IMG/VR virus record: IMGVR_UViG_3300049801_000015
Origin: a virus
DNA: 36,844 nt
Reading direction: 5' to 3' (one strand)
Position 1 is the first letter of the stretch. The number at the start of each line of letters is the position of its first letter. The translations under genes and the position numbers were made by a program. The notes beneath the pieces are model-generated. The model was not told where the DNA came from. It did no database searches and was given only the letters and a program-made list of their open reading frames with translations. Positions 5,735-21,753 of this stretch are shown piece by piece.

Positions 5735-6231
5735 AGCGCAAGCATGGATACATCGACCTGAAAGAGTGGGAGTGCGACGCCTGCGGGAAGGTGGTGCATT
5801 ACGACTACATCGACGGGCTCCCCGGCGCCTGCCCAAACTGCGAGGCCCAAATCCTTGGGTGCGAAGGATCGTGTTGCACGCTGGCCACAACGCGGATCGT
5901 GGACACTGGCGACGGCAATAGGGTTGGGCTCTGCGACAAGTGCGCCGACGATCATATCGTTTGTTCCAAGTGCGGAACGGCCGAACCCAAGCGGCTCGCG
6001 TGGGGCACCGTCTGCCGATCGTGTTTTAGTGCCGCCCCGGCGCGTGATCGGTTCGCGCTCCAAATGGCGGACTTGTTGCACGGGAGGCCCGACATCGGCG
6101 AGGCGCTTCGCTCCGACATCCTGCGCCACCTTGACGACGTGTGCGCCCATTACGAATCGCTCCTGTCGCCTGCCGTGCCGGTGCGCCGGGTGCCCGAGAA
6201 CGTCGGCGGTGACTGGCGGGCAGCGGTATGA
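5731..6231 (+). CDS. Multi-zinc-ribbon protein (several CxxC pairs)
   Basis: GTG 5731 overlaps the upstream stop (GTGA). The CxxC pairs are CDAC, CPNC, CDKC, CSKC and CRSC, plus a CC pair, followed by a helical acidic C-terminal half. Function unknown. It sits immediately upstream of the exonuclease/RecT pair. Confidence 0.6.
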   Translation: MKRKHGYIDLKEWECDACGKVVHYDYIDGLPGACPNCEAQILGCEGSCCTLATTRIVDTGDGNRVGLCDKCADDHIVCSKCGTAEPKRLAWGTVCRSCFSAAPARDRFALQMADLLHGRPDIGEALRSDILRHLDDVCAHYESLLSPAVPVRRVPENVGGDWRAAV

Positions 6232-7061
6232 AGCCCGCCCCCGGCCTTCATCCCGACATTCCAGCGCCGGACTACCACGCATGGGAGGCGGTGTCTCAGT
6301 CGCGGCTTTGGACGATGCGGAAGTCATCCCCGGCCCATGCCCTCTACGCCATGACGCACCCGACCGAGGCGACCCCGGCCATGCTTCTGGGGCAGGCGGT
6401 CCATTGTGCCGTACTTGAGCCGGAACGGTTCGGGCGGGAGTACATCCGGGCGATCGACGGCGACGGGCGGACGGCGGCGGTCAAGGCCGCTCGCGCCGCT
6501 CAGCTTGCCGAGAACCCGCTGGCAACGCTCCTGACCTCCACCGATTTCGACAAGTGCCTCGCGATCCGCGAAGCCTGCGCCGCCAACAAGTTCGCCCGGA
6601 TGCTCTTGGACGGTGACCACGAGGCGTCGTTCGCGTGGCAGGACGAGGCGACAGGCTTGACGTGCAAGGGCCGTGCTGACGTTCTCGGCAAGAAAACCGG
6701 GAGCGTGGTGGACCTCAAGACAACGCGCTCCGCCGCCCGCAACGCCTTCGAGCGGTCCCTGTACCAGTACGGCTACCACGTCCAGGCCGCGCACTACTTG
6801 GCCGGGGTCCGCGCGTGCGGGATCGACGCCCAACACTTCGTCATCGTCGCCGTCGAGCCGTTCCCGCCCTACGCGATCGCGGTTTATCGGCTGCTCGATG
6901 CCGTGGTCGGTTGGGGCGAGGAGGAGCGGGCGCAACTGCTAGCGACCTGGGCCGCGTGCGAGGCGTCCGGCACCTGGCCCGGCTACCCTTGCGAGATTCA
7001 GGACTTGAGCCTGCCCCCGTGGGCAACCCGTGAAATCATGGAGGTGACAGGAGATGAGTGA
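6228..7061 (+). CDS. PD-(D/E)XK (RecB-family) exonuclease, RecE/exonuclease VIII-like partner of RecT
   Basis: 277 aa. GRADVLGKKTGSVVDLKTT supplies the D...D-x-K nuclease core, and YHVQAAHY supplies the RecB-family QxxxY motif. It is translationally coupled to the RecT-like gene. Confidence 0.65.
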   Translation: MKPAPGLHPDIPAPDYHAWEAVSQSRLWTMRKSSPAHALYAMTHPTEATPAMLLGQAVHCAVLEPERFGREYIRAIDGDGRTAAVKAARAAQLAENPLATLLTSTDFDKCLAIREACAANKFARMLLDGDHEASFAWQDEATGLTCKGRADVLGKKTGSVVDLKTTRSAARNAFERSLYQYGYHVQAAHYLAGVRACGIDAQHFVIVAVEPFPPYAIAVYRLLDAVVGWGEEERAQLLATWAACEASGTWPGYPCEIQDLSLPPWATREIMEVTGDE

Positions 7062-7842
7062 GAACGCTGTAACGATTCGGCCGGAGGCGCTACCAACTGC
7101 GCCCGATCCCGTCAGCGGCTTCGTCGCCACCCTTGGCGAGCGGTGGCGACTGGCCCAGATGATCGTCCAGAGCGGCATGGCCCCCAAGGGCATGAGCCCC
7201 CAGGGCGTCATGGCCGTGATGCTCCGGGCGCACGAGCTAGGCATCGGCCCGATGCAGGCGCTTTCGACCGTCTACTGGTTCGACGGGCGGTTCTGCCTCG
7301 CGGCGGCGCTGATGGACGGGCTGGCCGTGGATCGGTGCGGCGTGGTCAAGCAGCTCGTGAGCCTGACCGACGCCGGATGCTCCATGAAGTTCATGCGCGC
7401 CGGCTGGCCGGATCTGGACGTGAGCTACACGAAGGACGAGGCGGCAGCCGCCGGCCTCACCGGCAAGGACAACTGGCGCAAGAACCCCCGCGCCATGCTC
7501 CTCGCCCGTTGCACCGCGCGCGGCATCCGGCTCATCGCCCCGGACTACTTCGCCGGGACGTACAGCATCGAGGAGTTCGGATTCGACACGGACAGGACGC
7601 CTCCCCCGCCGATGGACACCACGGCAGCGGCGGGCCTGACAGCACAGCTTGAGGCGGCGGCGGGTGCCGAGAAGCCTGATGGGGATGGCGGAAAGGAAAC
7701 CTCGCCCGTCGCCGCCCAAGATCATCCCGTCAAGGGCCACAAGGACAAGGCCGGGGCAACCGTCAAGTGGACGTGTCCTTGCGGATTCGTGACCGACGAC
7801 GCCGACAAGGCGGACGCCCACCGCGACGGGCTCGACTCGTAA
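7054..7842 (+). CDS. recT: RecT-family single-strand annealing protein
   Basis: 262 aa. The N-terminal AQMIVQSGMAPKGMSPQGVMAVMLRAHELGIGPMQALSTVYWFDGR and the later WRKNPRAMLLARCTARGIRLIAPD match the conserved RecT pattern (W..xPxxMLxxRaxxxaxRxxxP). The C-terminus is low complexity and ends in WTCPCGF. Confidence 0.7.
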   Translation: MSENAVTIRPEALPTAPDPVSGFVATLGERWRLAQMIVQSGMAPKGMSPQGVMAVMLRAHELGIGPMQALSTVYWFDGRFCLAAALMDGLAVDRCGVVKQLVSLTDAGCSMKFMRAGWPDLDVSYTKDEAAAAGLTGKDNWRKNPRAMLLARCTARGIRLIAPDYFAGTYSIEEFGFDTDRTPPPPMDTTAAAGLTAQLEAAAGAEKPDGDGGKETSPVAAQDHPVKGHKDKAGATVKWTCPCGFVTDDADKADAHRDGLDS

Positions 7843-9067: not shown

Positions 9068-10015
9068 TTGCCCGGGAGTCGCGCCTTGCGTAACTTCTCC
9101 ATCGTCCGCCCCGCCCTTTGGTCCGGTGGAACCGGGCGCATCCTCCGCGCCTCCGGCCCGGAAGCCCAGCTCGTCGCCGCCTACCTCATCACGAATCAGC
9201 ACGCCAACATGATCGGCCTCTACTACCTGCCCCTTGGGTACATGACCGTCGATCTGGCAAGCCCTCCCGAAGCCCTCCGCAAGGGCTTGGCCGGGTGCGT
9301 CGATGCAGGGTTCTGCCGGTACGATGATCCAACCGGGTACATTTGGGTGGTCAACATGGCCCGAGAGCAAGTCATGGACGAAAAGGGCGTGGTCCACCTC
9401 GGGGACAACCGGGTCCGGGCGGCTGTAAAGATGTTTGAGGCCAGCCCTAAGACGCCATTCCACAAGGCTTTCGCCCTACTCTATGGCCCCATGTTCGGGG
9501 CTCAATGGACCATCACAGATGGAAGGGCTTGCCAAGGGCTTGCCAAGGGCTTGCCAAGGGGTGTAGCGAGGTCTCCCTCTGATACGGATGCTGATGCTGA
9601 TTCGGATACGGACCAGAACAAGGATGGAAAGGCAAAGACTTGTTCGCGCAAGCGCGAACGTGGTGGGTATGCCGAGCCGTTCCTAGCGTTCTGGCAGGCC
9701 TACCCCCGGAAGACCGCCAAGGGCGCAGCAGCCAAAGCATGGGACAAGGCTCGTCCGCCCCTACCGGATGTCCTCAAGGCGCTCGACTGGCAGTGCACCT
9801 CGGAACAGTGGACCAAGGACGGGGGGCAGTTCATCCCGCTCCCGGCGACCTACCTGAATCAGCGCCGCTGGGAGGACGAGCCCCAGGCGCCGGCCGCGCC
9901 GGCCGAGCATCCCGCCATGAAGGTTCTGCGCCAGTCCATCGAGCGGGGCCGCGCCCGTGACGGCATGACCGGGCGGGACGTTACCCCCGACGAAATCAAG
10001 GGGCTGTTGAAATGA
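9068..10015 (+). CDS. Replisome organizer / replication initiator (lambda O or SPP1 G38P-like role)
   Basis: 315 aa. The N-terminal FSIVRPALWSG...AQLVAAYLITNQHANMIGLYYLPLGYMTVDL resembles phage replisome-organizer N-terminal domains. An acidic linker SDTDADADSDTD follows. The C-terminal FLAFWQAYPRKTAKGAAAKAWDKA...FIPLPATYLNQRRWEDE is a motif common in phage replication proteins. The TTG start at 9068 is uncertain. Confidence 0.6.
   Translation: MPGSRALRNFSIVRPALWSGGTGRILRASGPEAQLVAAYLITNQHANMIGLYYLPLGYMTVDLASPPEALRKGLAGCVDAGFCRYDDPTGYIWVVNMAREQVMDEKGVVHLGDNRVRAAVKMFEASPKTPFHKAFALLYGPMFGAQWTITDGRACQGLAKGLPRGVARSPSDTDADADSDTDQNKDGKAKTCSRKRERGGYAEPFLAFWQAYPRKTAKGAAAKAWDKARPPLPDVLKALDWQCTSEQWTKDGGQFIPLPATYLNQRRWEDEPQAPAAPAEHPAMKVLRQSIERGRARDGMTGRDVTPDEIKGLLK
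9523..9560. repeat. 3.5 tandem copies of an 11-bp iteron (AAGGGCTTGCC) inside the replication gene, putative origin
   Basis: Perfect copies lie at 9523-9533, 9534-9544 and 9545-9555, with a partial copy at 9556-9560. The same core recurs at 8982-8991, inverted at 9255-9264 (TGGCAAGCCC), and in degenerate form at 9281-9292. A relatively A/T-richer stretch and the palindrome TTCGCGCAAGCGCGAA (9643-9658) follow. Confidence 0.85.
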
Positions 10016-10560: not shown

Positions 10561-10585
10561 GAGAAGCCGAAACCCTGGAGGTGAA

Positions 10586-10900
10586 ATGAGCGAGAGCAAG
10601 CCCGCGCCGTGGAAGTGTCCGGCATGCGGTGGATCTGGGTTTACCGAAATCTACGATGGATTCGACAGACACGATGTAGCGATCACACATGACGAACCGT
10701 GCCGACTGTGTGACGCGTACAACGCAGGGAGACGCGCCGCGTTCGAGGAGATGCGTGATCGAATTGCCGAGGAGCATGACGACATGTGCGATCACGATGT
10801 TTCGACCTGCGACTCGTTGGTCTGTGAGATATGCGCGCAGCTTGGCCTGATAGTGGCGCTGGAAGCGTTCATAGGAGCCAAGATGGTGGAGGCAAAATGA
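10586..10900 (+). CDS. Small Cys-rich protein with a DnaJ-type CxxCxGxG zinc-finger motif (paralog family B)
   Basis: 104 aa. KPAPWKCPACGGSGF, CRLC and RRAAFEE are shared with CDS 13189..13437 (KPWGECRVCRGLG...ARRAAFEE) and CDS 13664..13960. Confidence 0.65.
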   Translation: MSESKPAPWKCPACGGSGFTEIYDGFDRHDVAITHDEPCRLCDAYNAGRRAAFEEMRDRIAEEHDDMCDHDVSTCDSLVCEICAQLGLIVALEAFIGAKMVEAK

Positions 10901-11190
10901 GCGAGAAGCCGACGCCGGGACCGTGGAAGATTGTTGGGGAGAACATCCGCAATACGAAGGGCGAATGGATAGCAGATCACGGCGGGCTATCAGATGACCC
11001 CGACGCCGCCTTGATCGTCTCCGCCGTCAACGCCTGCTTCGCCGTCAACCGCGACAACCCGATCAAGGTTGCGGAGGCGTGGCCGGAAGCGATCGCGTGG
11101 ATGCGTGAAGTGGTTGAGCGCGGCGCGGACTGCGAGGAACACTGGCGCTCGGGCCAGCGCATCCTCTCCGCGATGGAGGTGAAGCCGTGA
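10897..11190 (+). CDS. Hypothetical TPGPW-motif protein (paralog family C)
   Basis: ATGA-coupled start. KPTPGPWKI...DAALIVSAVNACF parallels CDS 13957..14349 (KPTPGPWRL...ANAALIVAAVNPCF). The two genes share the 19-nt string ccgacgccgggaccgtgga. Confidence 0.65.
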   Translation: MSEKPTPGPWKIVGENIRNTKGEWIADHGGLSDDPDAALIVSAVNACFAVNRDNPIKVAEAWPEAIAWMREVVERGADCEEHWRSGQRILSAMEVKP

Positions 11191-11396
11191 AGGATGAGGA
11201 GATTGCTGCAAAGGTGGTATTACAGATTGCGAGCAAGTGCGGGAACGACATGCTGCTATCGGCGCCGGTGTACGACGGGGTGCGTGAAGCCATCGCCCTC
11301 ACCCGCGAGGACTGCGCGAAGATCGCGGAAGAGTGGGCCGACACACGCGGCACATCTGAGGCGATTGCCGCCGCCATCCGCGAGCGTGGCAAGTGA
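11187..11396 (+). CDS. Hypothetical protein (paralog family D, VKDEEI N-terminus)
   Basis: GTGA-coupled start. The first 18 nt (gtgaaggatgaggagatt) are identical to the start of CDS 14512..14781, and the C-terminal ..IRERGK parallels ..ISERGKP. Confidence 0.6.
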   Translation: MKDEEIAAKVVLQIASKCGNDMLLSAPVYDGVREAIALTREDCAKIAEEWADTRGTSEAIAAAIRERGK

Positions 11397-11608
11397 GACG
11401 CGGCGACTGGTTCGCTATGTGGCTAGGGTTCACCGTCACGATAGCGACCCTGGGCACAGTGAAGATCACAAACCAACTCAAGGCCAATGCCGCCGCCGTC
11501 CTCACCCAAGCCGCCGCGCTCAACCGCCTCGCCGCAGCACAGGAAGCCGACACCGAACTAACCCGGCGCTACTACCACGCGCTGGAAGACGCAGAGGGGG
11601 AACGATGA
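11393..11608 (+). CDS. Small membrane-anchored coiled-coil protein
   Basis: 71 aa. GTGA-coupled start. The N-terminal TM helix is WFAMWLGFTVTIATLGTV, followed by an Ala-rich helix. Confidence 0.55.
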   Translation: MRRGDWFAMWLGFTVTIATLGTVKITNQLKANAAAVLTQAAALNRLAAAQEADTELTRRYYHALEDAEGER

Positions 11609-11916
11609 GCGATCAAGTGGTTCGTACACGCGAAGAGATCGAGCGCGAAGTGCAACGCGAACTCGACCGCATGAAGGCACAGGCCAAAGCCGAGAACGAA
11701 GACTGGTTGCGCGAAGCCGAGCGCCGCGCGGTAGGCCGCTACCAGCTCGCAAGCCAACCCGTCGTGATGACGAAGGACGGCCCGGTGCAATTCGCTACCG
11801 CGCTCGTTTTCGACACGACAACCGGGACGCTCGCGCATGTGCCGATCCCGGCGCCAGAGGAGCCGAAGATCAGGCCCGCGAAGATCCTCGACCTGCCGAG
11901 CGGGAGGGTGTCGTGA
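11605..11916 (+). CDS. Hypothetical protein with a charged helical N-terminus
   Basis: 103 aa from the ATGA-coupled ATG 11605 (REEIEREVQRELDRMKAQAKAENEDW...). The longer track ORF from 11194 overlaps two better-supported genes and is Arg/Pro/Ser-rich. Confidence 0.6.
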   Translation: MSDQVVRTREEIEREVQRELDRMKAQAKAENEDWLREAERRAVGRYQLASQPVVMTKDGPVQFATALVFDTTTGTLAHVPIPAPEEPKIRPAKILDLPSGRVS

Positions 11917-12215
11917 GCAACGCGCCTATCTTCATCCCGATGCCGTATGAGACCACGCCCGACGTTTGCCCCAAATGCGGAAAGGGCGAGGATGCTCGGG
12001 TTGTGTGCCACCACTGTGGATACGAGTACCCCGAAGACGACATGAGCCTGACCGGTCCAGAGAAGGCCGTGGTGGCCATCATAATCGTCGTCGTGATTTG
12101 GGTTGTACTCACGCTCATCGGCTGGCTAGCCGTGACGATGGCAGATGACGGCGGCACGCTGATGGATGTACTGCGCGGACAGGTGGAGTTCATGAAGCGG
12201 TGGAGGATCAAGTGA
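11913..12215 (+). CDS. Zinc-ribbon plus TM-helix membrane protein
   Basis: 100 aa. CPKCG...CHHCG forms a zinc ribbon, followed by the TM helix AVVAIIIVVVIWVVLTLIGWLAV. GTGA-coupled start. Confidence 0.6.
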   Translation: MSNAPIFIPMPYETTPDVCPKCGKGEDARVVCHHCGYEYPEDDMSLTGPEKAVVAIIIVVVIWVVLTLIGWLAVTMADDGGTLMDVLRGQVEFMKRWRIK

Positions 12216-12559
12216 TCCTCACCATCCCCCGCGCGCTCCCGTCGTGGAATCAGTTCTACGCCGGGGTCCATTGGGCGCAACGGCGCAAGCTCGCCACGCT
12301 CTGGCACGCGCTTGTCGCCGAGCAAGTGCGCGCGGCGGGCAAGTTCCCGGCGTTCGCGAAGCCGGTCAACATCATCGTGACGCGCTACGGCTCTCCGGCA
12401 ATCGACCCGGACAACATCTGCGCGAAGCTCGCTATCGACGGACTCGTGCGCTCGCGCGTGCTGTGGGATGACGGGCCGATGTACGTTGACGGGGTGACGC
12501 TGTACTCGCGCGTGTCGAAGTCGCGCTTCACGCAGATCGAAGTGAGGGAGGTTCAGTGA
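12212..12559 (+). CDS. rusA: RusA-family Holliday junction resolvase
   Basis: LTIPRALPSWNQFY, AIDPDNICAKLAIDGLVRSRVLWDDGPMYV and TQIEVRE align with E. coli RusA ([47 protein letters not shown]). I chose the GTG at 12212 (GTGA overlap, GGAGG 5 nt upstream). The ORF opens at 12200. Confidence 0.8.
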   Translation: MILTIPRALPSWNQFYAGVHWAQRRKLATLWHALVAEQVRAAGKFPAFAKPVNIIVTRYGSPAIDPDNICAKLAIDGLVRSRVLWDDGPMYVDGVTLYSRVSKSRFTQIEVREVQ

Positions 12560-12563
12560 TTTC

Positions 12564-12633
12564 GCCCGCCCGCGAACCCAACTTACAAACGGTAAGTCGT
12601 GGGGAGGAAAGACGCGCGGGCGGGCTTCTCTTG
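12564..12633 (+). terminator. Long GC-rich hairpin followed by TTCTCTT (terminator or structured RNA candidate)
   Basis: An 11-bp perfect stem pairs GCCCGCCCGCG (12564-12574) with CGCGGGCGGGC (12615-12625). It encloses an inner hairpin ACTTAC-aaacg-GTAAGT (12581-12597) and is followed by ttctctt. The enclosed region is unusually large for an intrinsic terminator. Confidence 0.4.
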
Positions 12634-12701
12634 CGGGGGCGGCAAAGCGCCGCGCTTGGGGTAAGCACCAAGCAACCCCGCGATCTTGAGCAGGAGGTGA
12701 G

Positions 12702-12971
12702 ATGAGCGAGAAACGAAACGACGGCGGGCCCGCGTTCCCGGCAACCCGCTATGACAGTCAGGAGATCAAGGGCGAGGGCGGTGAGGTCACGGTCACATTC
12801 GGCGGCATCGAGTACCCCGGCATGACCCTCCGCGACTACTTCGCGGCGAAGGCTACGGATAATGACGTGTCGCGCTGGATTCGCATCATGGGCGAAAACG
12901 GAATGCCGGTCTCGCGTGAGGCGGCCAAGTGGTTGTACGCCGATGAGATGTTGAGGGAGCGTGACCGATGA
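12702..12971 (+). CDS. Hypothetical GGPAFP-motif phage protein
   Basis: 89 aa. Perfect RBS AGGAGG 4 nt upstream. GGPAFP...GMTLRDYFAAKA is a motif pair I recognise from many phage proteins of unknown function. Confidence 0.65.
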   Translation: MSEKRNDGGPAFPATRYDSQEIKGEGGEVTVTFGGIEYPGMTLRDYFAAKATDNDVSRWIRIMGENGMPVSREAAKWLYADEMLRERDR

Positions 12972-13192
12972 GCGACAAACCGCCGAAGCCGACGGATGGA
13001 GATGTTGAATTGGCCCGCGTCCATGATGGCGCTTTCAACAACCCGCCGTGCTCAGACGCCGTATGCGCCGTCCGCCGCCGCGCCGAGTGGGAGAACAAGA
13101 TCATGCGGGAGGCGATTAACGAGACGCTGTTGAGGCGTGACCATGAGGCTCCAGCCATTCTGCGCGCTACCCTAGAGGAGATCGACCGATGA
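12968..13192 (+). CDS. Hypothetical protein, paralog family A copy 1
   Basis: 74 aa. CAVRRRAEWENKIMREA...LEEIDR parallels CDS 13434..13667. There is a 47-nt exact identity between 13068-13114 and 13543-13589. Confidence 0.65.
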   Translation: MSDKPPKPTDGDVELARVHDGAFNNPPCSDAVCAVRRRAEWENKIMREAINETLLRRDHEAPAILRATLEEIDR

Positions 13193-13437
13193 CCGCGAAG
13201 CCGTGGGGGGAGTGCCGTGTCTGTCGTGGCCTGGGTGAGATGGTCGATGGGTTCAAGGCCCATAGCTCGACAGGCCAGCCCGTGATGGTTGAGTGTCCCT
13301 GCATCGAAGCCCGCCGCGCCGCGTTCGAGGAGGCGATGGAGGCCGTCAGTAACGCCAAGTCCGGCAAGTGTATCCATTGCGGCACACAGCGAGCGATTGA
13401 TCTGGCGGCCATCCGCGCCAAGATGGAGGGGGAATGA
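13189..13437 (+). CDS. CxxCxGxG zinc-finger protein, paralog family B copy 1
   Basis: 82 aa. MTAKPWGECRVCRGLG...CPC...ARRAAFEEAMEA...CIHCG...AAIRAKMEGE. The N- and C-termini are nearly identical to CDS 13664..13960. Confidence 0.65.
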   Translation: MTAKPWGECRVCRGLGEMVDGFKAHSSTGQPVMVECPCIEARRAAFEEAMEAVSNAKSGKCIHCGTQRAIDLAAIRAKMEGE

Positions 13438-13667
13438 GCGAACCGATGAAGCCGACGGAAGACGAATTGCGCGATGCGCGCCGTCATGACGGGTGGATTG
13501 GTGATGCTTTTGTTGATCTCAAATGTGGGCACCCAGCATGCACCGTCCGCCGCCGCGCCGAGTGGGAGAACAAGATCATGCGGGAGGCGCTTGAGAAACT
13601 CACAGAGGGCGGCGACCAGGAGTGGGTTGACGTGGCCAGTGACACCCTAGAGAAGATCGACCGATGA
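13434..13667 (+). CDS. Hypothetical protein, paralog family A copy 2
   Basis: 77 aa. CTVRRRAEWENKIMREA...LEKIDR. See copy 1. Confidence 0.65.
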   Translation: MSEPMKPTEDELRDARRHDGWIGDAFVDLKCGHPACTVRRRAEWENKIMREALEKLTEGGDQEWVDVASDTLEKIDR

Positions 13668-13960
13668 CCGCGAAGCCGTGGGGGGGCGCTCTTGAATTGT
13701 GGGGTCAGTACGCAAGCCCCGCAATCGACAGCATCGGAGACGCGAACGAGATTGAGGTGGTGACGAAGGCCGACTTCGTGGCCGCTGTCACAGAAGCCCG
13801 CCGCGCCGCGTTCGAGGAGGCGTGCAAAGCCGAGTGTCTTTACTGTCGTGAGAACGCACCGATTCTTGTTGGGTTGGATGGTGCATGGCATCGGGACGGG
13901 CTAGGTGAAATCAAGCAATGCCACGCTGCGGCCATCCGCGCCAAGGTGGAGGGGGAATGA
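13664..13960 (+). CDS. Paralog family B copy 2 (CxxCxGxG motif lost)
   Basis: 98 aa. MTAKPWGG...ARRAAFEEACKAECLYCRE...AAIRAKVEGE. It shares the 32-nt junction string agatcgaccgatgaccgcgaagccgtgggggg with copy 1. Confidence 0.65.
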   Translation: MTAKPWGGALELWGQYASPAIDSIGDANEIEVVTKADFVAAVTEARRAAFEEACKAECLYCRENAPILVGLDGAWHRDGLGEIKQCHAAAIRAKVEGE

Positions 13961-14349
13961 AACCGACGCCGGGACCGTGGAGACTCGCAACGGAATGGTC
14001 GGACGAACACGGCATGAGGCACGACTGTGCCGCCGTCGATGCAGACACGGGGAACGTCACGGACTGTCTGCGCATGTACTCGCCACTTGCGGAGGATCAA
14101 GCCAACGCCGCCCTGATAGTCGCCGCCGTGAACCCGTGCTTCGCATCGGAGCGCCCGCTTGACTTCGCCGCGCAGATCCCGGCGATGGTGGAGAGGGCAA
14201 AGGATCAGGCTGGCCGTGAGTGCGCCAATATCTCTGTAGTCGATGAGGACTGCGGGTATCTGTACCACGACAAGCCGCATCGTTGGTGCGAACCGTGCCA
14301 TTCCCGCGCCCTCCTCGCCTCGGCGGGGATCGAGTGGAGGGAGACGTGA
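13957..14349 (+). CDS. Hypothetical TPGPW-motif protein (paralog family C copy 2)
   Basis: 130 aa from the ATGA-coupled ATG. MKPTPGPWRL...ANAALIVAAVNPCF, plus a Cys-containing C-terminal extension (CGYLYHDKPHRWCEPCH). Confidence 0.65.
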   Translation: MKPTPGPWRLATEWSDEHGMRHDCAAVDADTGNVTDCLRMYSPLAEDQANAALIVAAVNPCFASERPLDFAAQIPAMVERAKDQAGRECANISVVDEDCGYLYHDKPHRWCEPCHSRALLASAGIEWRET

Positions 14350-14522
14350 TCCGGCTCATGCGATGGCACGAAGGGAGACGGGCCGTGTTCGCACGCGGGA
14401 ACGTCTTTGAGAACGCGATCCTGTGGATGCGCGGATACAGGCCGCACGACACGCTATTCGGGTTTGTCATGGCTAAGTGGGCCAGAGCCGCCGACGCGGC
14501 GGGAGGTGGACGTGAAGGATGA
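14346..14522 (+). CDS. Hypothetical small protein
   Basis: 58 aa from the GTGA-coupled GTG 14346 (VIRLMRWHEGRRAVFARGNVFENAILWMRGY...). It overlaps the next start by 11 nt. No motif recognised. Confidence 0.4.
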   Translation: MIRLMRWHEGRRAVFARGNVFENAILWMRGYRPHDTLFGFVMAKWARAADAAGGGREG

Positions 14523-14781
14523 GGAGATTCGTCGCAAGGCCCTGATGGTGGACATCAAAGCTGGCGCGTCCGAGATCGCCACTATCATCGACGCCGCCAT
14601 CCGCCTCGCGCGGGAGGATGAGAGGGAGGCCCTTACCAAGTGGCACCAAGAGGGGTACGCGGAGGCAAATAGGAAATCAATCGAATCGGTGGACGTGCAG
14701 TACCTCTACCATCGCAACAAGGGCCGCATGGACGCGCACTCCGACGCCGTTGACTTCATTTCAGAGAGGGGGAAACCGTGA
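14512..14781 (+). CDS. Hypothetical protein (paralog family D copy 2)
   Basis: GTG 14512 is preceded by GGGAGG with a 5-nt spacer. The VKDEEI start is identical in DNA to CDS 11187..11396. Confidence 0.6.
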   Translation: MKDEEIRRKALMVDIKAGASEIATIIDAAIRLAREDEREALTKWHQEGYAEANRKSIESVDVQYLYHRNKGRMDAHSDAVDFISERGKP

Positions 14782-15113
14782 GCATCTTCACCACGCTACG
14801 AGACGCCGTTCTCGGCACCACGCCGCAGGCCGTAGTCGCCAAGCGCCTACAGCGCATCGAGTCCATCGAAGCCGACTGGCAGAAGATCGCGGACACGCTC
14901 AGGCCGCTCGCAATCCCGCCGCCCTTCGTCAACGACACGACGGGGAATCCGGCGTTCGAGGCAAAGCGATGCATCGATGGGTTGATCGTGATGCACAGCC
15001 TTGCTGTTGGGCAAGTCGATGCTGGTCACGAGGCAGCCGCTAAGGGCAGCGGGTCAAGCGCGGGGAGTTTCGAGTTCGAGGCCCGCTGCCGGATCAAGGA
15101 GGTGAGGTGGTGA
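14778..15113 (+). CDS. Hypothetical protein
   Basis: 111 aa. GTGA-coupled start. No motif recognised. Confidence 0.55.
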   Translation: MSIFTTLRDAVLGTTPQAVVAKRLQRIESIEADWQKIADTLRPLAIPPPFVNDTTGNPAFEAKRCIDGLIVMHSLAVGQVDAGHEAAAKGSGSSAGSFEFEARCRIKEVRW

Positions 15114-15655
15114 CCCGCGCCGCCCTCGCCCTCGCGCTCCGCCCCTGGCTGTGGTGGAAGGAACGACTCCGCCGGGAATACTGGCGCGGGTTCGATCACG
15201 CCGCGGCCTTCTATCGCGGCGACACGGTGGCCGGATCATACGTCCAGTATTTGGCCAGTCGCTACAGCGCGCCGCGTGAAACCGTGGTCACCGTCCAGCG
15301 ATTCGGGCCCGGCGTTAGCGCTGCGGTAGTCGAGGCGGCGGAGCACAAGCCGTGGATCAAGTGTACCAACTGCCGCGGAGATGGACACTTCTTGGCGCGA
15401 GAAGAAGATCCGTGTATCCGCAGACAGACGGTTCATTGCACGTGCGGACCCGCGTACCACGCGGGGTTCTCCGACGGGTGGGCCGCGTCAAAAGAAGACG
15501 CCGCAAGGTGGCATGGTGCGCGGGGACACAGGCTAGCGTATGCGCCCAAGACAGACGTGGCGGAACGTGAAGTCAAACAGCTGCTATTCAACGAACACCT
15601 AAAGTCCGCAGATCATCACCGATCACTCAAGAACAAGCCGGAGGTACAACCATGA
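15107..15655 (+). CDS. Hypothetical protein with a DnaJ-type CxxCxGxG motif
   Basis: 182 aa. CTNCRGDGHF is followed by CIRRQTVHCTCG. The N-terminus is hydrophobic and Trp-rich. GTG 15110 (GTGA overlap) is an alternative start. Confidence 0.55.
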   Translation: MVTRAALALALRPWLWWKERLRREYWRGFDHAAAFYRGDTVAGSYVQYLASRYSAPRETVVTVQRFGPGVSAAVVEAAEHKPWIKCTNCRGDGHFLAREEDPCIRRQTVHCTCGPAYHAGFSDGWAASKEDAARWHGARGHRLAYAPKTDVAEREVKQLLFNEHLKSADHHRSLKNKPEVQP

Positions 15656-16900: not shown

Positions 16901-17357
16901 CACGCATGACGTTTCGGCGCGGGGCAGAACCCAATCATCTACAGCGCGCTCGTACCTCCCGAGCGATCCGCTCCATCACCGGGCGAACCCCGCGCCTATC
17001 ATCCGCAGAGGAAACGTGTTGAGGCGCGACGCCATAGACTTCCTGCCGCAAGGCTGCGCCATCATCGACGCCGTTTCCGAGATTCAACACGAGTACGTCG
17101 TGAAGAGCCGTTCACCGGGTTACGTACCAGCACCACCGGCTAACCCCACGATGAGTCAATGCGGGCCAGTCCGCACGACTACGGGTTACTGGGGCGCGCC
17201 CCCAATACCGCCTGACCGCGTGTATTACGAGGGCGACCCCGGCGACCTAGACGACGAAGAGACCCCCAACCGCGTGCCAACCATTACCGGCGCGCAAGGA
17301 GCGGCCGCGATCTGTCCTGGTGGACTGCGCGACCGTGCGGGATTTGGCGAAGGCTAA
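16881..17357 (+). CDS. Uncertain ORF upstream of the small terminase
   Basis: It is the only + strand ORF in the 445-nt interval. Third-position GC looks coding-like from about GTG 17016 onward (GNVLRRDAIDFLPQGCAIIDAVSEIQHEYVV...) and is weaker before that. It would overlap the TerS start. The interval could instead be non-coding (a pac or cos region). Confidence 0.3.
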   Translation: MLRCACSTHDVSARGRTQSSTARSYLPSDPLHHRANPAPIIRRGNVLRRDAIDFLPQGCAIIDAVSEIQHEYVVKSRSPGYVPAPPANPTMSQCGPVRTTTGYWGAPPIPPDRVYYEGDPGDLDDEETPNRVPTITGAQGAAAICPGGLRDRAGFGEG

Positions 17358-17856
17358 AGCACCGCGTCCTACCGGGCGCCCAAGCACTTACACCGAAGAG
17401 GCCGCCCAGGCCATCATCGCCGAACTTGACTTCGGCATGTCCTGGCCCGACTCCTGTGCGCTGGCAGGAATCCCCGAATCCACTGCACGCCTTTGGACTA
17501 CCGAGCACGAGGACTTTCTGCGGGGGATAAAGTCCGCCCGCGCCAACGCTCACCGGCGCGCCCTCGCCCGAATCCAAGAGGCCGGGGACCGCTGGCAGTC
17601 CGCCGCGTGGTTCCTCGAGCGCCACGACTTCCAGAACTGGGGCGCGCGTCAGGCCGTCGAAATGTCCGGCCCGAACGGCGGCCCGATCTCCACCGAGGCC
17701 ATCACCCCCGTCGAGGCCGTCCTTCGCCAGCGTCAACTGCTCGGCGTAGCCGGACTTGGGTCCATCGACTACCAAGTCGACCCCCATGCCGCCGCGGTGA
17801 GCGTGGCTGGCAACGGGAACGGCAAGCCCAAGAACGGCAACGGTCATGGGGCTTGA
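17320..17856 (+). CDS. terS: Terminase small subunit
   Basis: 178 aa. The N-terminal GRPSTYTEEAAQAIIAELDFGMSWPDSCALAGIPESTARLWTTEHEDFLRGIKSARA is the HTH pattern common to small terminases. It lies directly upstream of TerL and overlaps it. The exact start is uncertain (GTG 17320, GTG 17335 or TTG 17344). Confidence 0.7.
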   Translation: MDCATVRDLAKAKAPRPTGRPSTYTEEAAQAIIAELDFGMSWPDSCALAGIPESTARLWTTEHEDFLRGIKSARANAHRRALARIQEAGDRWQSAAWFLERHDFQNWGARQAVEMSGPNGGPISTEAITPVEAVLRQRQLLGVAGLGSIDYQVDPHAAAVSVAGNGNGKPKNGNGHGA

Positions 17857-19537
17857 GGCGCTCACGCTCATGATCGCACTCGCCGGCGGCATCAACCCCT
17901 GGGCGCTCAACGACGCCACCTACAAGGCGCTCGTCCAGAACGAGATCGCCGCGTTCGGTCAGAACGAGGAGTGGGTAGCCGCAGAGCGGGTCCGGTGCTT
18001 TGCGCCCACCGTGACCGACCGGGAGATCGGCTTCCAGTACTGGGCCGCTCGCTACTGGAACCTCGTCAACAAGCGGGGCGAGATCGTCCTACTCCGCCCC
18101 AACGCGCTCCAGCGCTCCTACCTCGCCAACCGCTCCGCCGAGAACGTCATCCTCAAGTACCGCAAGGGCGGCGCATCGAGCGTGGTCGACGCGATGTACT
18201 ACTGGCGCTGTCGCCGCTCCCCGTACCAGCACGCCTACATCATGGCGCACGTTGCCGACTCCACCGACGAGCTCTACCAGCGCGTGCTCTTCGCTCACGA
18301 CCGTATGCCGGGCTACCTGGCCGCGCCGATCCGCCGTAGCAACAAGACCGTGCTGCACTTCGCCGACAACGACTCCTACCTCCGACTCATGACTGCCGGG
18401 GGCAAGGGCTCAGGCCGCGCCGCGGACGCCGACGCGATCCACCTCTCCGAGGCAGCGCACTACCCCGACCTGGACGGCACTCTCGCCGCGGTGGGGGAGG
18501 CCAAGCGCTCGGACGCATGGCTCGACATCGAGTCGACCCCCAACGGTTTCGACCGCTTCCGCTCCGAGTTCAAGGACGCCAAGGCCGGAAAGACCACGCG
18601 CACGGCGCAGTTCTTCCCGTGGTACTTCGACCCGGCCAACAGCACCACACTCGAGCGCGGCGAGCGCGTCACCCCAACCGCTTCCGAGCGCCCGCTGGTT
18701 GCCGCATGGCACCTCAAGCCTGAGCAGTTGAAGTGGCGGCGCGCCAAGATCGCCGACCTGAAAGACCTCTTCGCCCAAGAGCATCCCGAGGACGACGAGT
18801 CGTGCTTCCTCATCGGCGGTGTGCCCAAGTTTGACAATTCGATCCTGGGCAAGCTCGTTGCCGTGGTCGAGGCCCGCGTGCTCCCGCTCAACGAGTCGGA
18901 GCTGCGTGCCGCTGGCGACCCGTACCGCGGCTCCGGCGACAACGGGCGCTGGGTTGTCTGGCGTCGCCCGATCAAAGGGCACCGCTACGTGATCGGGGCG
19001 GACGTTGCCGAGGGCCTTCCGGGTCGTGCGAACTCCGCCGCTGGCGTTCTCGACGTAACCGGCGCCCAGGCCGAACAGGTCGCCGAGTGGTGTGGCCACG
19101 TCTCCCCGGGCGACTACGCGCACGTCCTCGCCAAGATCGGCGGCTGGTACAACGGCGCACTGGTAGCCGCCGAGCGCAACAACCACGGGCACGCGACGCT
19201 GCGCGCCCTGCGAAACGAAGTCGGCTACGCGCACATCTACAAGCACCGTCACTACGACCAGCGTGCAGGAGGCGCGATCAAGCGCCCCGGCTGGCCGACT
19301 GACGGCAAGACCCGCCCGATCATGTTCACCGACCTCCGCGACTGTCTCGACAAGGGCTGGATGATCGTCCGCTCTGCCGAGTTCCTCAAGGAGTGCATGG
19401 CGATGCAGGCGGGCGACGAGGACTTGGACAGTGACGACGACAGGCCGTCGCACTCGAAAGTCCTGCGGGATCGGATCTTCGCGTGGGGCATCGCGTGGCA
19501 GGTGCGCGGCGTAGCAACGGCAGGAGCGGTGGCATGA
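17846..19537 (+). CDS. terL: Terminase large subunit
   Basis: 563 aa. It has a Walker-A-like VILKYRKGGASS, a Walker-B/coupling element AIHLSEAAHY and ESTPNG, plus a C-terminal nuclease half with acidic motifs (VIGADVAEG, ERNNHG). The position before the portal gene fits. Confidence 0.9.
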   Translation: MGLEALTLMIALAGGINPWALNDATYKALVQNEIAAFGQNEEWVAAERVRCFAPTVTDREIGFQYWAARYWNLVNKRGEIVLLRPNALQRSYLANRSAENVILKYRKGGASSVVDAMYYWRCRRSPYQHAYIMAHVADSTDELYQRVLFAHDRMPGYLAAPIRRSNKTVLHFADNDSYLRLMTAGGKGSGRAADADAIHLSEAAHYPDLDGTLAAVGEAKRSDAWLDIESTPNGFDRFRSEFKDAKAGKTTRTAQFFPWYFDPANSTTLERGERVTPTASERPLVAAWHLKPEQLKWRRAKIADLKDLFAQEHPEDDESCFLIGGVPKFDNSILGKLVAVVEARVLPLNESELRAAGDPYRGSGDNGRWVVWRRPIKGHRYVIGADVAEGLPGRANSAAGVLDVTGAQAEQVAEWCGHVSPGDYAHVLAKIGGWYNGALVAAERNNHGHATLRALRNEVGYAHIYKHRHYDQRAGGAIKRPGWPTDGKTRPIMFTDLRDCLDKGWMIVRSAEFLKECMAMQAGDEDLDSDDDRPSHSKVLRDRIFAWGIAWQVRGVATAGAVA

Positions 19538-21753
19538 ACGAGTTGAACATCGGTAAGCTACGCATCTCCTGGGGCACCGCCAAGGCCGGATCGCTCGGGC
19601 TGACGATTGGTGACGCCGGGTCCGGCCAGGTCGTCAACCGCGACCTGTACGAGGACTACTCCAAGTCTAAGCTCTATACCGTGCTCCCCACCTTCTACGC
19701 GGGCGTGTACGCGATTGCATCAAGCATGGCGTCGGTTCCGTTCCGCGTGTACCGCAGACGCAACGGGAAGGAAGTCGAGGCACCGGACCACGAACTCCAG
19801 ACGTTGCTCGACACCTGGAACGGGTGGAAGTCCACCTACGACGAGCGCGAGGAGTCGCAGTCATTCCTCGAGCTGACCGGCTCGGCGTATCTGCTGTGTG
19901 GCGGCGCGAACGTCGACAAGGGCGGGAAGCCGCTCACGCTCACCAATCTCCGACCGTTCCGCGTGAAGGTCATCAAGGACGCGACGATGGGCGTCGCTGG
20001 CTACGTCTACGAAGTGGACAGCAAGCGGCAGACGTTCTCGGCAAACGAGATCGTGCCCATGCACTACTTCAACCCGACCGATGACCACTACGGGCTCGGT
20101 GCGGTTGACCCTGCATCGCTCGCCGCGATCTGCGACCTCTACGCAATAGCCCTCCAGAAGAACTTCTTCAAGCACGACGCGCAGTTGGGCGTTGTCCTTG
20201 AGTACCCCGAGGACACCGGGCAGGACGTACTCGACCGCGCGATCCTGGCGTTCAACGAGAAGCACCAGGGCGTGGACAAGGCGTGGCGGGCGCGCGCGGT
20301 GGCCGGGGCGAAGGTATCGAAGACCTCTGCGGACTTGGCCGACATGCTCTTCCCCGATCTGCGCCGGTTCAACCGCGAAGAGATTCTGATGGCATTGGGC
20401 GTGCCGCCCGTCATGGTGACGTTGCTGGATGGCGCGACCTACGCGAACGCGAAGGAGCAGAAGCGGCAGTTCTGGGAACTGACCATCATCCCGAAGCTCA
20501 AGAAGTGGGAAGGCGCGTTCAACCTCCACCTTGCGCCGCGATACGGCAACGACATCACGGTGCGCGCGGACCTGGCCGGAATCGAAGCTCTGCGACCTGA
20601 CCGCGTGGCGATGGTCTCAGCGATCACCCAGGCGCTGCCGCTGTTGCGTCGTGACGAGGCGCGGGCGTGGCTCAACGACGGCGAGCTTCCGTCGCTCAAG
20701 CCGCTAGGCGGGGAGCTTGGCAACGAGGTGTTGCAGTCGTTCTCGCTCATCCCGGCATCGGCCCTGAGCGTGTCGGAGCAGAAGCCAGCCGGAGCCGCCG
20801 CCAATGCTGACTTATCCATCGAGCGACTCCTGAACGCCGTCAACGAGAAGGCCGCGCACGTCCTATCCGACGAGCAGACCGAGGCGCGCAAGGTGGGCAA
20901 GTGGCGCGCGTTCGACAAGCGGTCCCGCATGATGGCCCGCGTGTTCGAGAAGACCGCGCGCTCCATGTTCAAGGAGCAGGAGTCGGCGGTACTCGACGGG
21001 CTCGAATCTGCGATCAACGCGGGCGCATCGACTCCGGTTGTCCGCGTGATGCTCGATGGGAAACTGACCTCGATCAGTTCTCCCGAGACGAAGAGCGTTG
21101 CCGAAGTCTCGTTGATCCTCGACCGGCTCCAGAACGGCAACATCGAGCGCTTCCGTGGCGTGTACGCAGAGGCGGTGAACCGTGCCGGGACCAACGCGCT
21201 TGAGGATTTGGGACTCACGGAGTTGCAGTTCTCTCTTCTCCAGCCTTCCGTCGTGTCCTATCTGGACAAAGCGGGAGCGCAACTGGTCAAGGGCGTTGAC
21301 TCCACCACGAAGGATCGCCTCGCGACGACGCTCGCGGAAGGCGTCCAGAGCGGCGAGAACATGCTCCAACTCTCGGACCGGGTGAAGACTGTATTCGACG
21401 CCTCACGCGCACGCGCGAACGCGATCGCCGTCACCGAGTCGGGCGCGGCATACAACGCCGGAACACTTGAGGCGTGGACTCAGACGGGCGGACTCGTCGA
21501 GAAGAAGGTCTGGCTCTCTTCGCGTGATGACCGCGTGCGCGACTCGCACGCCGAAGCCGAAGGGCAAGAAGTGCCGCTGTCAGGCGTCTTCCAGGTCGGC
21601 GACGCCACGCTCGCATTCCCTGGCGACGGCTCATCCCAAGACCCCGGAGAGACCGTCAACTGCCGCTGCACCATCGAGGCCGTATTGAGCGGCGAGCAGG
21701 AATCCTACCGCGCTCGCAGGAACGGAAACGGAACCCATGCACACACGAAATAA
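19534..21753 (+). CDS. Portal protein (HK97-type) fused to a C-terminal MuF/SPP1 gp7-like head-morphogenesis domain
   Basis: 739 aa from the ATGA-coupled ATG. The N-terminal two thirds have the portal pattern (YAIASSMASVPFRVYRR..., FLELTGSAYLL, MALGVPPVMV). The C-terminus AIAVTESGAAYNAG...WLSSRDDRVRDSHAEAEGQEVPLSGVF...PGETVNCRCT is the MuF-family signature (D-RVR--H...NCRC). Confidence 0.85.
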   Translation: MNELNIGKLRISWGTAKAGSLGLTIGDAGSGQVVNRDLYEDYSKSKLYTVLPTFYAGVYAIASSMASVPFRVYRRRNGKEVEAPDHELQTLLDTWNGWKSTYDEREESQSFLELTGSAYLLCGGANVDKGGKPLTLTNLRPFRVKVIKDATMGVAGYVYEVDSKRQTFSANEIVPMHYFNPTDDHYGLGAVDPASLAAICDLYAIALQKNFFKHDAQLGVVLEYPEDTGQDVLDRAILAFNEKHQGVDKAWRARAVAGAKVSKTSADLADMLFPDLRRFNREEILMALGVPPVMVTLLDGATYANAKEQKRQFWELTIIPKLKKWEGAFNLHLAPRYGNDITVRADLAGIEALRPDRVAMVSAITQALPLLRRDEARAWLNDGELPSLKPLGGELGNEVLQSFSLIPASALSVSEQKPAGAAANADLSIERLLNAVNEKAAHVLSDEQTEARKVGKWRAFDKRSRMMARVFEKTARSMFKEQESAVLDGLESAINAGASTPVVRVMLDGKLTSISSPETKSVAEVSLILDRLQNGNIERFRGVYAEAVNRAGTNALEDLGLTELQFSLLQPSVVSYLDKAGAQLVKGVDSTTKDRLATTLAEGVQSGENMLQLSDRVKTVFDASRARANAIAVTESGAAYNAGTLEAWTQTGGLVEKKVWLSSRDDRVRDSHAEAEGQEVPLSGVFQVGDATLAFPGDGSSQDPGETVNCRCTIEAVLSGEQESYRARRNGNGTHAHTK

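Follow-up and report, generated by a model that had tools for sequence, protein, structure and literature searches.

Old dispersed paralogues and a tandem duplication with conserved DNA blocks in a probable nin-type accessory region of a metagenomic phage

In lambdoid phages, the nin region separates the replication genes from the late and packaging genes and consists of many small, packed open reading frames (ORFs), among them a Holliday-junction resolvase, with a patchy, mosaic gene content in relatives; the rap gene of lambda is located within it. Lambdoid phages also encode an exonuclease and an annealing protein of their own. In published work, the Red and RecET systems are described as recombining short or diverged homologies, and some phage module exchanges as using short conserved flanking sequences (PMC2327257, PMC3945230). 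The DNA considered here, called the window, is the whole 36,844-nucleotide (nt) stretch of the IMG/VR virus record IMGVR_UViG_3300049801_000015, the middle part of which carries repeated copies of four families of small protein genes, A, B, C and D. It is held with moderate confidence that these genes are old dispersed paralogues, together with a tandem duplication, in a nin-type accessory region reshuffled at short blocks by the phage's own recombination system.

The gene order from the replication initiator (9068-10015) to the small terminase (17320-17853), all on the + strand, shows that the region occupies the place of the lambdoid nin region. A RusA-like resolvase is found among its many small packed ORFs, and an exonuclease and an annealing protein are likewise phage-encoded. 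The gene content is patchy and mosaic across the window and two related phages, L001 and L038, in which genes have been moved, lost, truncated, doubled or inserted. Exchanged cassettes flanked by short conserved sequences are a further trait shared with nin-type regions (PMC2327257). The locus differs from lambda nin in that it has no sequence similarity to nin genes, in that its conserved blocks are found not just at junctions but also within coding sequence, and in that the same families occur two to four times in one genome. The genes in question are listed below, with lengths in amino acids (aa).

A1: 12968..13192, + strand, 74 aa; first gene of tandem unit 1
A2: 13434..13667, + strand, 77 aa; first gene of tandem unit 2
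B1: 10586..10900, + strand, 104 aa; zinc (Zn) knuckle (CPACGGSG...CRLC), two long helices and a second Cys cluster
B2: 13189..13437, + strand, 82 aa; CRVCRGLG...CPC, RRAAFEEA and AAIRAKMEGE; links B1 and B3
B3: 13664..13960, + strand, 98 aa; RRAAFEEA, a CxxxCxxC...C cluster and AAIRAKVEGE kept; lacks the N-terminal Zn knuckle
C1: 10897..11190, + strand, 97 aa; TPGPW protein of a phrog_1273-type family
C2: 13957..14349, + strand, 130 aa; TPGPW protein with a Cys/His-rich insert before the last helix
D1: 11187..11396, + strand, 69 aa; MKDEEI...ALTREDCAK...IRERGK
D2: 14512..14781, + strand, 89 aa (91 aa if the start is at 14506)
x: 14346..14522, + strand, 58 aa; between C2 and D2
B-like Zn-knuckle segment (KPWIKCTNCRGDG...): 15347..15514, + strand; inside the 182-aa g15107 (15107-15655)

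A sequence-only reading had described two modules encoding the same three families in the same order, B1-C1-D1 and B3-C2-D2. All six of these ORFs are confirmed on the + strand with a coding-type G+C content at third codon positions (GC3), and it is borne out that these small families are present as diverged paralogues with a repeated order, a combination shared with L001 and L038. Also real are the three strings of DNA said to be retained exactly by both modules, none of them being expected by chance in shuffled sequence: CGCGCCGCGTTCGAGGAG has three copies (10733, 13315 and 13802), CCGACGCCGGGACCGTGGA two (10909 and 13963) and GTGAAGGATGAGGAGATT two (11187 and 14512). Protein paralogy, assessed by Smith-Waterman alignment against 2000 shuffles with blastp alongside, gives z=13.5 for C1/C2, 11.2 for B1/B2, 10.6 for B2/B3 and 5.7 for D1/D2. 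The direct similarity of B1 and B3 reaches z=2.2, with 81 of the 2000 shuffles equally good, so that 10586-10900 and 13664-13960 belong to one family by way of B2 (13189-13437) and not as a direct pair. The finger protein is present twice only when B2 is counted, because B3, the member in module 2, lacks the CxxCxGxG motif. Family A and the tandem duplication [A1-B2][A2-B3] had been overlooked, and gene callers on other contigs place the start of D2 at 14506, not 14512. The idea that the genes are spurious ORFs with chance similarity has its basis in the high G+C content (63%) of the genome and its many long non-coding ORFs on both strands, but coding-type GC3 is limited to the + strand, where GC3 exceeds GC1 and GC2 as it should in coding sequence and the overlapping minus-strand ORFs lack this pattern. 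Significant paralogy, homologues kept in other phages and a confident AlphaFold2 (AF2) model of C1 likewise argue against it, and the idea, now of practically no probability, is already refuted by these results.

The age of the copies was approached through a same-codon test, in which the identical amino acids of two paralogues are scored for use of the same codon against the phage's own codon usage.

A1/A2 (tandem): same codon in 30/35, expected 18, z=4.3
B2/B3 (tandem): same codon in 28/34, expected 16, z=4.3
B1/B2 (dispersed): same codon in 15/29, expected 15.5, z=-0.2
C1/C2 (dispersed): same codon in 21/36, expected 17.1, z=1.4
D1/D2 (dispersed): same codon in 15/25, expected 13.9, z=0.5

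Two layers of paralogy are shown by these values, an old dispersed one (B1-C1-D1 versus B-C2-x-D2) and a 475-bp tandem one that is younger or continually homogenised. The dispersed copies are old because their codon sharing is at background, and since both dispersed sets are present in L001 and L038, the dispersed duplication predates the split of those phages. The exact strings of the dispersed pairs are, as far as codon sharing indicates, short conserved patches in otherwise old and diverged copies.

The tandem duplication [A1-B2][A2-B3] extends over 12968-13960 with a period of 475 nt, and A1 and A2 are 48% identical (E=6e-20, z=28). When the two units are aligned (12968-13437 versus 13434-13960), identity is 95% within four blocks of 34-55 nt (169 columns) and 46% in the DNA between them (418 columns), the latter being the background for gapped alignment at this G+C content. 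Such an alternation of nearly identical blocks with background DNA is unusually clean and directly testable as a recombination substrate.

13063..13117, + strand: block inside A (VRRRAEWENKIMREA); partner 13538-13592; 53/55 nt identical
13169..13212, + strand: A-B junction block; partner 13644-13686; 42/44 nt identical
13305..13338, + strand: block inside B (ARRAAFEEA); partner 13792-13824; shorter copy in B1, 10733-10750
13402..13437, + strand: B-end junction block; partner 13926-13960; 34/36 nt identical

The A-B junction block encodes ...LEEIDR, the stop of which overlaps the ATG of the following MTAKPWG, and it contains both a Shine-Dalgarno sequence and the ATGA overlap. In the B-end block, the stop after AAIRAKMEGE overlaps the next ATG, and the Shine-Dalgarno sequence is GGAGGGGG. 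The A-B units of L001 and L038 keep the same blocks almost base for base, including the VRRRAEWENKIMREA block, and the segments between the blocks differ from copy to copy, with insertions and deletions (indels). A 15-nt core of the A-B junction, GAGATCGACCGATGA, occurs three times in L038, where a phrog_419 gene, inserted between A and B, has one of the copies on either side; this arrangement looks like the footprint expected of cassette insertion by recombination at the junction. The inserted gene, at 7715-8004 of L038, ends in ...EEIDR as A does. The phage is carried by several samples, including JGI 3300048563, 3300049804, 3300049784 and 3300049437 and SRR35972544. On a 1.4-kb contig (L046, from JGI 3300049784), the first 16 nt of positions 1-164 are A1-specific and are followed by the shared block, which continues into A2. 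This start could be an A1/A2 chimera as produced by unequal crossing-over, an assembly artefact at the contig end being equally possible. A diversity-generating retroelement was considered and dropped: the inter-block segments are unalignable (46% identity, indels) and are not A-mutated copies, a template-like repeat is lacking, and the scanned ORFs, which were part of those of the window, yielded no reverse transcriptase.

According to the favoured explanation, namely reshuffling at short blocks, the region would hold small accessory genes within the early/middle gene series of a temperate-type phage. RecE, RecT and RusA would recombine its copies with one another and with co-infecting relatives at the short blocks, thereby duplicating, deleting, inserting and swapping variable cassettes, and the junction blocks would probably be kept for translational coupling as well. 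The encoded proteins may be small binders, helical or Zn-binding, that the phage produces early in infection, among which B (Zn knuckle and helical hairpin) and C (beta-meander and three helices) may pair, D not being tied to them. Several points weigh against this explanation. No recombinant has been directly observed, block recombination being deduced from the sequence pattern alone, and the sole candidate, the first 16 nt of L046, could be artefactual. The term 'accessory' is an assumption drawn from position and patchy distribution, and the comparison covers three or four related phages, all metagenomic. Selection on Shine-Dalgarno and start contexts alone could keep the two junction blocks identical, although it explains the internal blocks less well. 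A broader form of this objection, that the blocks are kept by nucleotide-level selection (for translational coupling, mRNA structure or a binding site) and not by recombination or gene conversion, is judged unlikely. Its strength is that two of the four blocks span junctions, with Shine-Dalgarno sequences and overlapping stop and start codons, and that the blocks are kept across three phages; but the internal blocks (VRRRAEWENKIMREA and RRAAFEEA) are far from any start codon, the L038 cassette between duplicated junctions resembles a recombination product, and the phage encodes a RecET system.

Under the reshuffling explanation, the window is a clear metagenomic example of how a phage accessory region is built up from old paralogues, tandem duplication and cassette exchange at short blocks. 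A bolder proposal, for which the probability is low, is that A, B and C are binders built of a scaffold and variable loops, the inter-block segments of which would be under diversifying selection against variable host factors, defence proteins for instance, and that RecET swaps specificity cassettes at the block joints. If true, this would be a recombination-based diversification system for small early proteins, and the invariant 34-55-nt blocks would be dedicated recombination joints acting within the genome and between co-infecting relatives.

Whether B, C and D also form a functional unit depends on their arrangement in the related phages, which is as follows.

Window, module 1: B1-C1-D1-g11393
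Window, module 2: [A-B][A-B]-C2-x-D2-g14778
L001, module 1: C-D-g11393-B
L001, module 2: A-B-C2-(x/D2-like)-g14778
L038, module 1: D-g11393 only, located after module 2
L038, module 2: [A-B][A-insert-B]-C2 without TPGPW-(phrog_24212 gene)-D-D-g14778

In L001, B1 has been relocated; in L038, B1 and C1 are absent, C2 is truncated, D is doubled and a DUF1064 protein takes the place of the RusA-like resolvase. D1 is always followed by the g11393 homologue in the window, L001 and L038. For D2 the corresponding neighbour is the g14778 homologue, which comes next in the window and is separated from it by a second D-like gene in L038; in L001 only a weak D2-like gene precedes that homologue. From these arrangements it follows that D stays with its downstream neighbour and not with C. 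Among 5.8 billion proteins, family B has 11 members and family D 10, all of them from the window phage, L001, L038 or a small number of short contigs; outside this lineage, phages with C lack A, D and any finger-bearing B. One short contig that looks related (L008) has a B3-like gene directly upstream of C; the close relatives of B3 are this ORF, at L008 4699-5001, and P0162/P0164. Profile-profile comparisons of B with D and of C with B indicate that the families are unrelated to one another. As for x, it has nothing but a C-terminal AADAAGGG tail in common with the differently sized genes found at this position in L001 and L038, and so probably represents a remnant or a cassette that has been swapped; gene callers handle it inconsistently.

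The sequence-only reading had proposed that B, C and D are one three-protein system of counter-defence or host takeover, kept in two or three copies for variant host targets and provided with a DnaJ-like finger. The order of the families is indeed repeated within the window and recurs in L001 and L038, and their stop and start codons overlap, so that B, C and D are probably co-expressed; the long variable inter-block segments could be specificity regions, and occasional fusions of B-like with C-like proteins exist (L009 545-976, P0163, 3 of 154 C members). Against this, B and D are limited to one lineage while C is widespread and usually lacks their company, module 1 is incomplete or reordered in relatives, D keeps its downstream neighbour rather than C and is found without B or C at the module-1 position of L038, and overlapping junctions are typical of the whole region, beyond these three genes. 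Moreover, the DnaJ tests failed, B3 has no finger, and there is no match in Pfam, NCBIfam, PDB or BFVD. The proposed system is very unlikely. Co-occurrence of the families outside the window genome holds narrowly, in close relatives, and not beyond them; the notion of a co-occurring B-C-D unit is not supported, since B and D are lineage-confined, C is widespread and usually without them, and the set is incomplete or reordered even within the lineage. A functional B-C-D trio is likewise unsupported; for counter-defence or host takeover, evidence was found neither for nor against, and a new defence or counter-defence system is not demonstrated.

A narrower alternative, that only B and C are a functional pair (a small Zn-ribbon protein with a phrog_1273-type protein) and that D and A are unrelated neighbours, is doubtful. 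In the window, L001, L038 and L008, B immediately precedes C2, the two genes overlapping at ATGA; unrelated small CxxC...CxxC ORFs stand directly upstream of C in L005/L022, L006, L007, L015, L021 and L031; and in-frame B-C fusions exist in an L009 ORF with two CxxCxGTG repeats and in P0163. However, the Zn ORFs that precede C in other phages have no homology to B, about 20% of the small ORFs of such regions are Cys-rich regardless, C1 of L001 is preceded by a non-Cys protein, and fusions are rare, 3 of 154 C members having Cys-containing N-terminal extensions. An enrichment of Zn-ribbon ORFs upstream of C was dropped as an argument: Zn-like neighbours are found upstream in 7/22 cases and downstream in 3/15, a difference that is not significant, so B-C pairing is possible and unproven, and statistically weak. 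In the fusion P0163 (ENA, 1.8-kb contig), a B3-like N-terminus is joined in frame to a C2-like C-terminal half without TPGPW. At L009 545-976, the two repeats are joined in frame to a TPGPW protein, and the C part is preceded by a Shine-Dalgarno sequence and an ATG internal to the ORF.

The DnaJ cysteine-rich domain comprises four CxxCxGxG repeats and two zinc centres. The motifs CPACGGSG, CRVCRGLG and CTNCRGDG, from which DnaJ-type substrate binding had been proposed, are all found in the translations, one CxxCxGxG each in B1, B2 and g15107 and none in B3; g15107 is related to B2 (z=6.7, blastp E=4e-4) and to L001_6802 (E=2e-5). Like the DnaJ domain, B has a CxxCxGxG knuckle with a second Cys pair 20-25 residues further on. 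Unlike DnaJ, it has one repeat, or none in B3, it has neither a J-domain nor the DnaJ C-terminal domains, and after the knuckle comes a helical hairpin, which is absent from DnaJ. B1 scores 14.0 bits (E=0.061) against PF00684, the gathering threshold of which is 32.7, and the other B-family members have no match; the B-family profile aligns weakly with the DnaJ cysteine-rich domain 1exk (E=0.47 over 25 residues) and finds nothing significant among PDB sequences. No Pfam match to a J-domain or DnaJ C-terminal domain occurs in B1, B2, B3 or g15107, and scans of A, B, C, D, x and g15107 against Pfam, PHROGs and NCBIfam return merely weak phrog_1273 and phrog_28080 matches. The AF2 model of B1, of low confidence (predicted local distance difference test score, pLDDT, 67), has a beta-hairpin (19-23, 33-38) and helices at 40-67 and 78-102, and Foldseek finds it no match in PDB at E<=0.001. 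The proposed DnaJ-type substrate binding is not supported, given the single repeat instead of four, its absence from B3 and the score of 14 versus 32.7 bits; assignment of B to PF00684 is rejected on repeat count, sub-threshold score and the missing J-domain. The motif is most likely one Zn knuckle of a small zinc ribbon, and in the predicted model the knuckle and the second Cys pair probably make one Zn centre with the beta-hairpin. Zn ribbons are common among small phage proteins. There is no support for a chaperone-like role of B, and nothing here bears on chaperone biology.

Family C is much larger than the others. A profile built from 12 sequences retrieves, among 1.84 billion proteins, 1265 cluster representatives at E<=1e-3, of which 205 reach E<=1e-10, the family thus comprising at least 1265 clusters at 50% identity. 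Among 79 aligned members, 49 match phrog_1273 at E<=1e-3 (best 1.1e-10), and C1 and C2 by themselves match it weakly (E=0.026 and E=0.01), so that their membership is transitive. They share with phrog_1273 the size, the (T/K)xGxW N-terminus and the ANAxLIxAAVNAC motif, and differ from its core as peripheral members, C2 with its Cys/His-rich insert. Since phrog_1273 is a family without known function, membership tells nothing about mechanism. One relative, P0005, carries a precomputed PF27050 tag, and C members have no match in NCBIfam, in any PDB sequence or in the copy of Pfam scanned, which is without PF27050. Other searches were likewise negative: two C-family members searched by tblastn had no match in 50,697 phage records, the C motif led to no relative in GTDB species genomes, the cluster look-up gave 'hypothetical protein' annotations only, and literature searches for phrog_1273 and PF27050 produced no papers. 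An Ead/Ea22-like identity (PF13935) was considered and discarded, as 0 of the 79 aligned members match that Pfam model. The AF2 model of C1 has a pLDDT of 89 and a predicted template modelling score (pTM) of 0.74 and consists of a three-strand meander, beginning at TPGPW, and three helices; Foldseek against PDB and BFVD gives no match at E<=0.001, the BFVD matches being weak and uncharacterised. A large family with a confident predicted fold and no solved match is a reasonable structural and functional target.

The genes are set within a continuous series of small + strand genes from 9068 to about 16 kb, the neighbourhood of which is as follows.

6228-7058: RecE-like exonuclease VIII (phrog_412, E=7e-80; Pfam DUF3799)
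7054-7839: RecT-like annealing protein (phrog_561, E=1e-18)
9068-10015, + strand: DnaD-like replication initiator (family matches)
Directly after the initiator and before B1, + strand: g10012
After g10012, + strand, in this order: B1, C1, D1, g11393, g11605, g11913
12200-12559, + strand: RusA-like resolvase (phrog_1682, E=3e-8)
12702-12971: g12702 (MSEKRNDGGPAFP...; phrog_2201, E=9e-14)
After the RusA-like gene, + strand, in this order: g12702, A1, B2, A2, B3, C2, x, D2
After D2, + strand, in this order: g14778, g15107, lipoprotein-like ORF
17320-17853, + strand: small terminase

The RecE-like and RecT-like genes (6228-7839), together with the RusA-like gene (12200-12559), make a complete phage recombination set. 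In a further difference from lambdoid phages, no Q-type antiterminator was identified: the ORFs at 15.1-17.3 kb have no informative family matches in general scans, none of which was a search aimed at such a gene. Compared by blastn with the 50,697 phage records, the region yields nothing beyond 50-100-nt matches in the replication gene and g12702; g12702 is its only part with nucleotide similarity to cultured phages, namely the Burkholderia phages KL4 and DC1 (84-88% over ~50 nt). Between 8800 and 17900, there are no promoter-like sites, and terminator-like sites are no commoner than in shuffled sequence (4 found versus 6.5 expected). The same-strand gene series is probably one operon.

Other features were noted outside the repeated genes. 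The ORF at 8303-8920 matches the Pfam Mom family above threshold (53.5 bits, E=3e-14), which suggests a putative Mom-like DNA modification gene just 5′ of the replication genes. In the middle of the DnaD-like initiator gene, a perfect 11-bp tandem repeat, AAGGGCTTGCC, is present in 3.5 copies at 9523-9560 and is followed, at 9579-9601, by a less G+C-rich stretch with CTGATG repeats. By analogy with lambda O, this layout resembles the iterons of a putative origin within the initiator gene. Further downstream, a 756-aa ORF (19483-21753) corresponds to a portal fused to a Mu F-like domain (Pfam Phage_portal and Phage_Mu_F), as is also the case in L038.

At the level of translation, adjacent genes overlap by 4 nt (ATGA or GTGA) at 14 of the 19 junctions, with a Shine-Dalgarno sequence placed in the final codons of the preceding gene. 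A near-identical start region, GGAGGnnAAATGAGCGAGA (Shine-Dalgarno sequence and MSE...), precedes and begins genes of different families.

10577-10595, + strand: start region of B1
10888-10906, + strand: start region of C1
12693-12711, + strand: start region of g12702
13425-13443, + strand: start region of A2

Judging by these copies, translation start regions look stereotyped across non-homologous genes.

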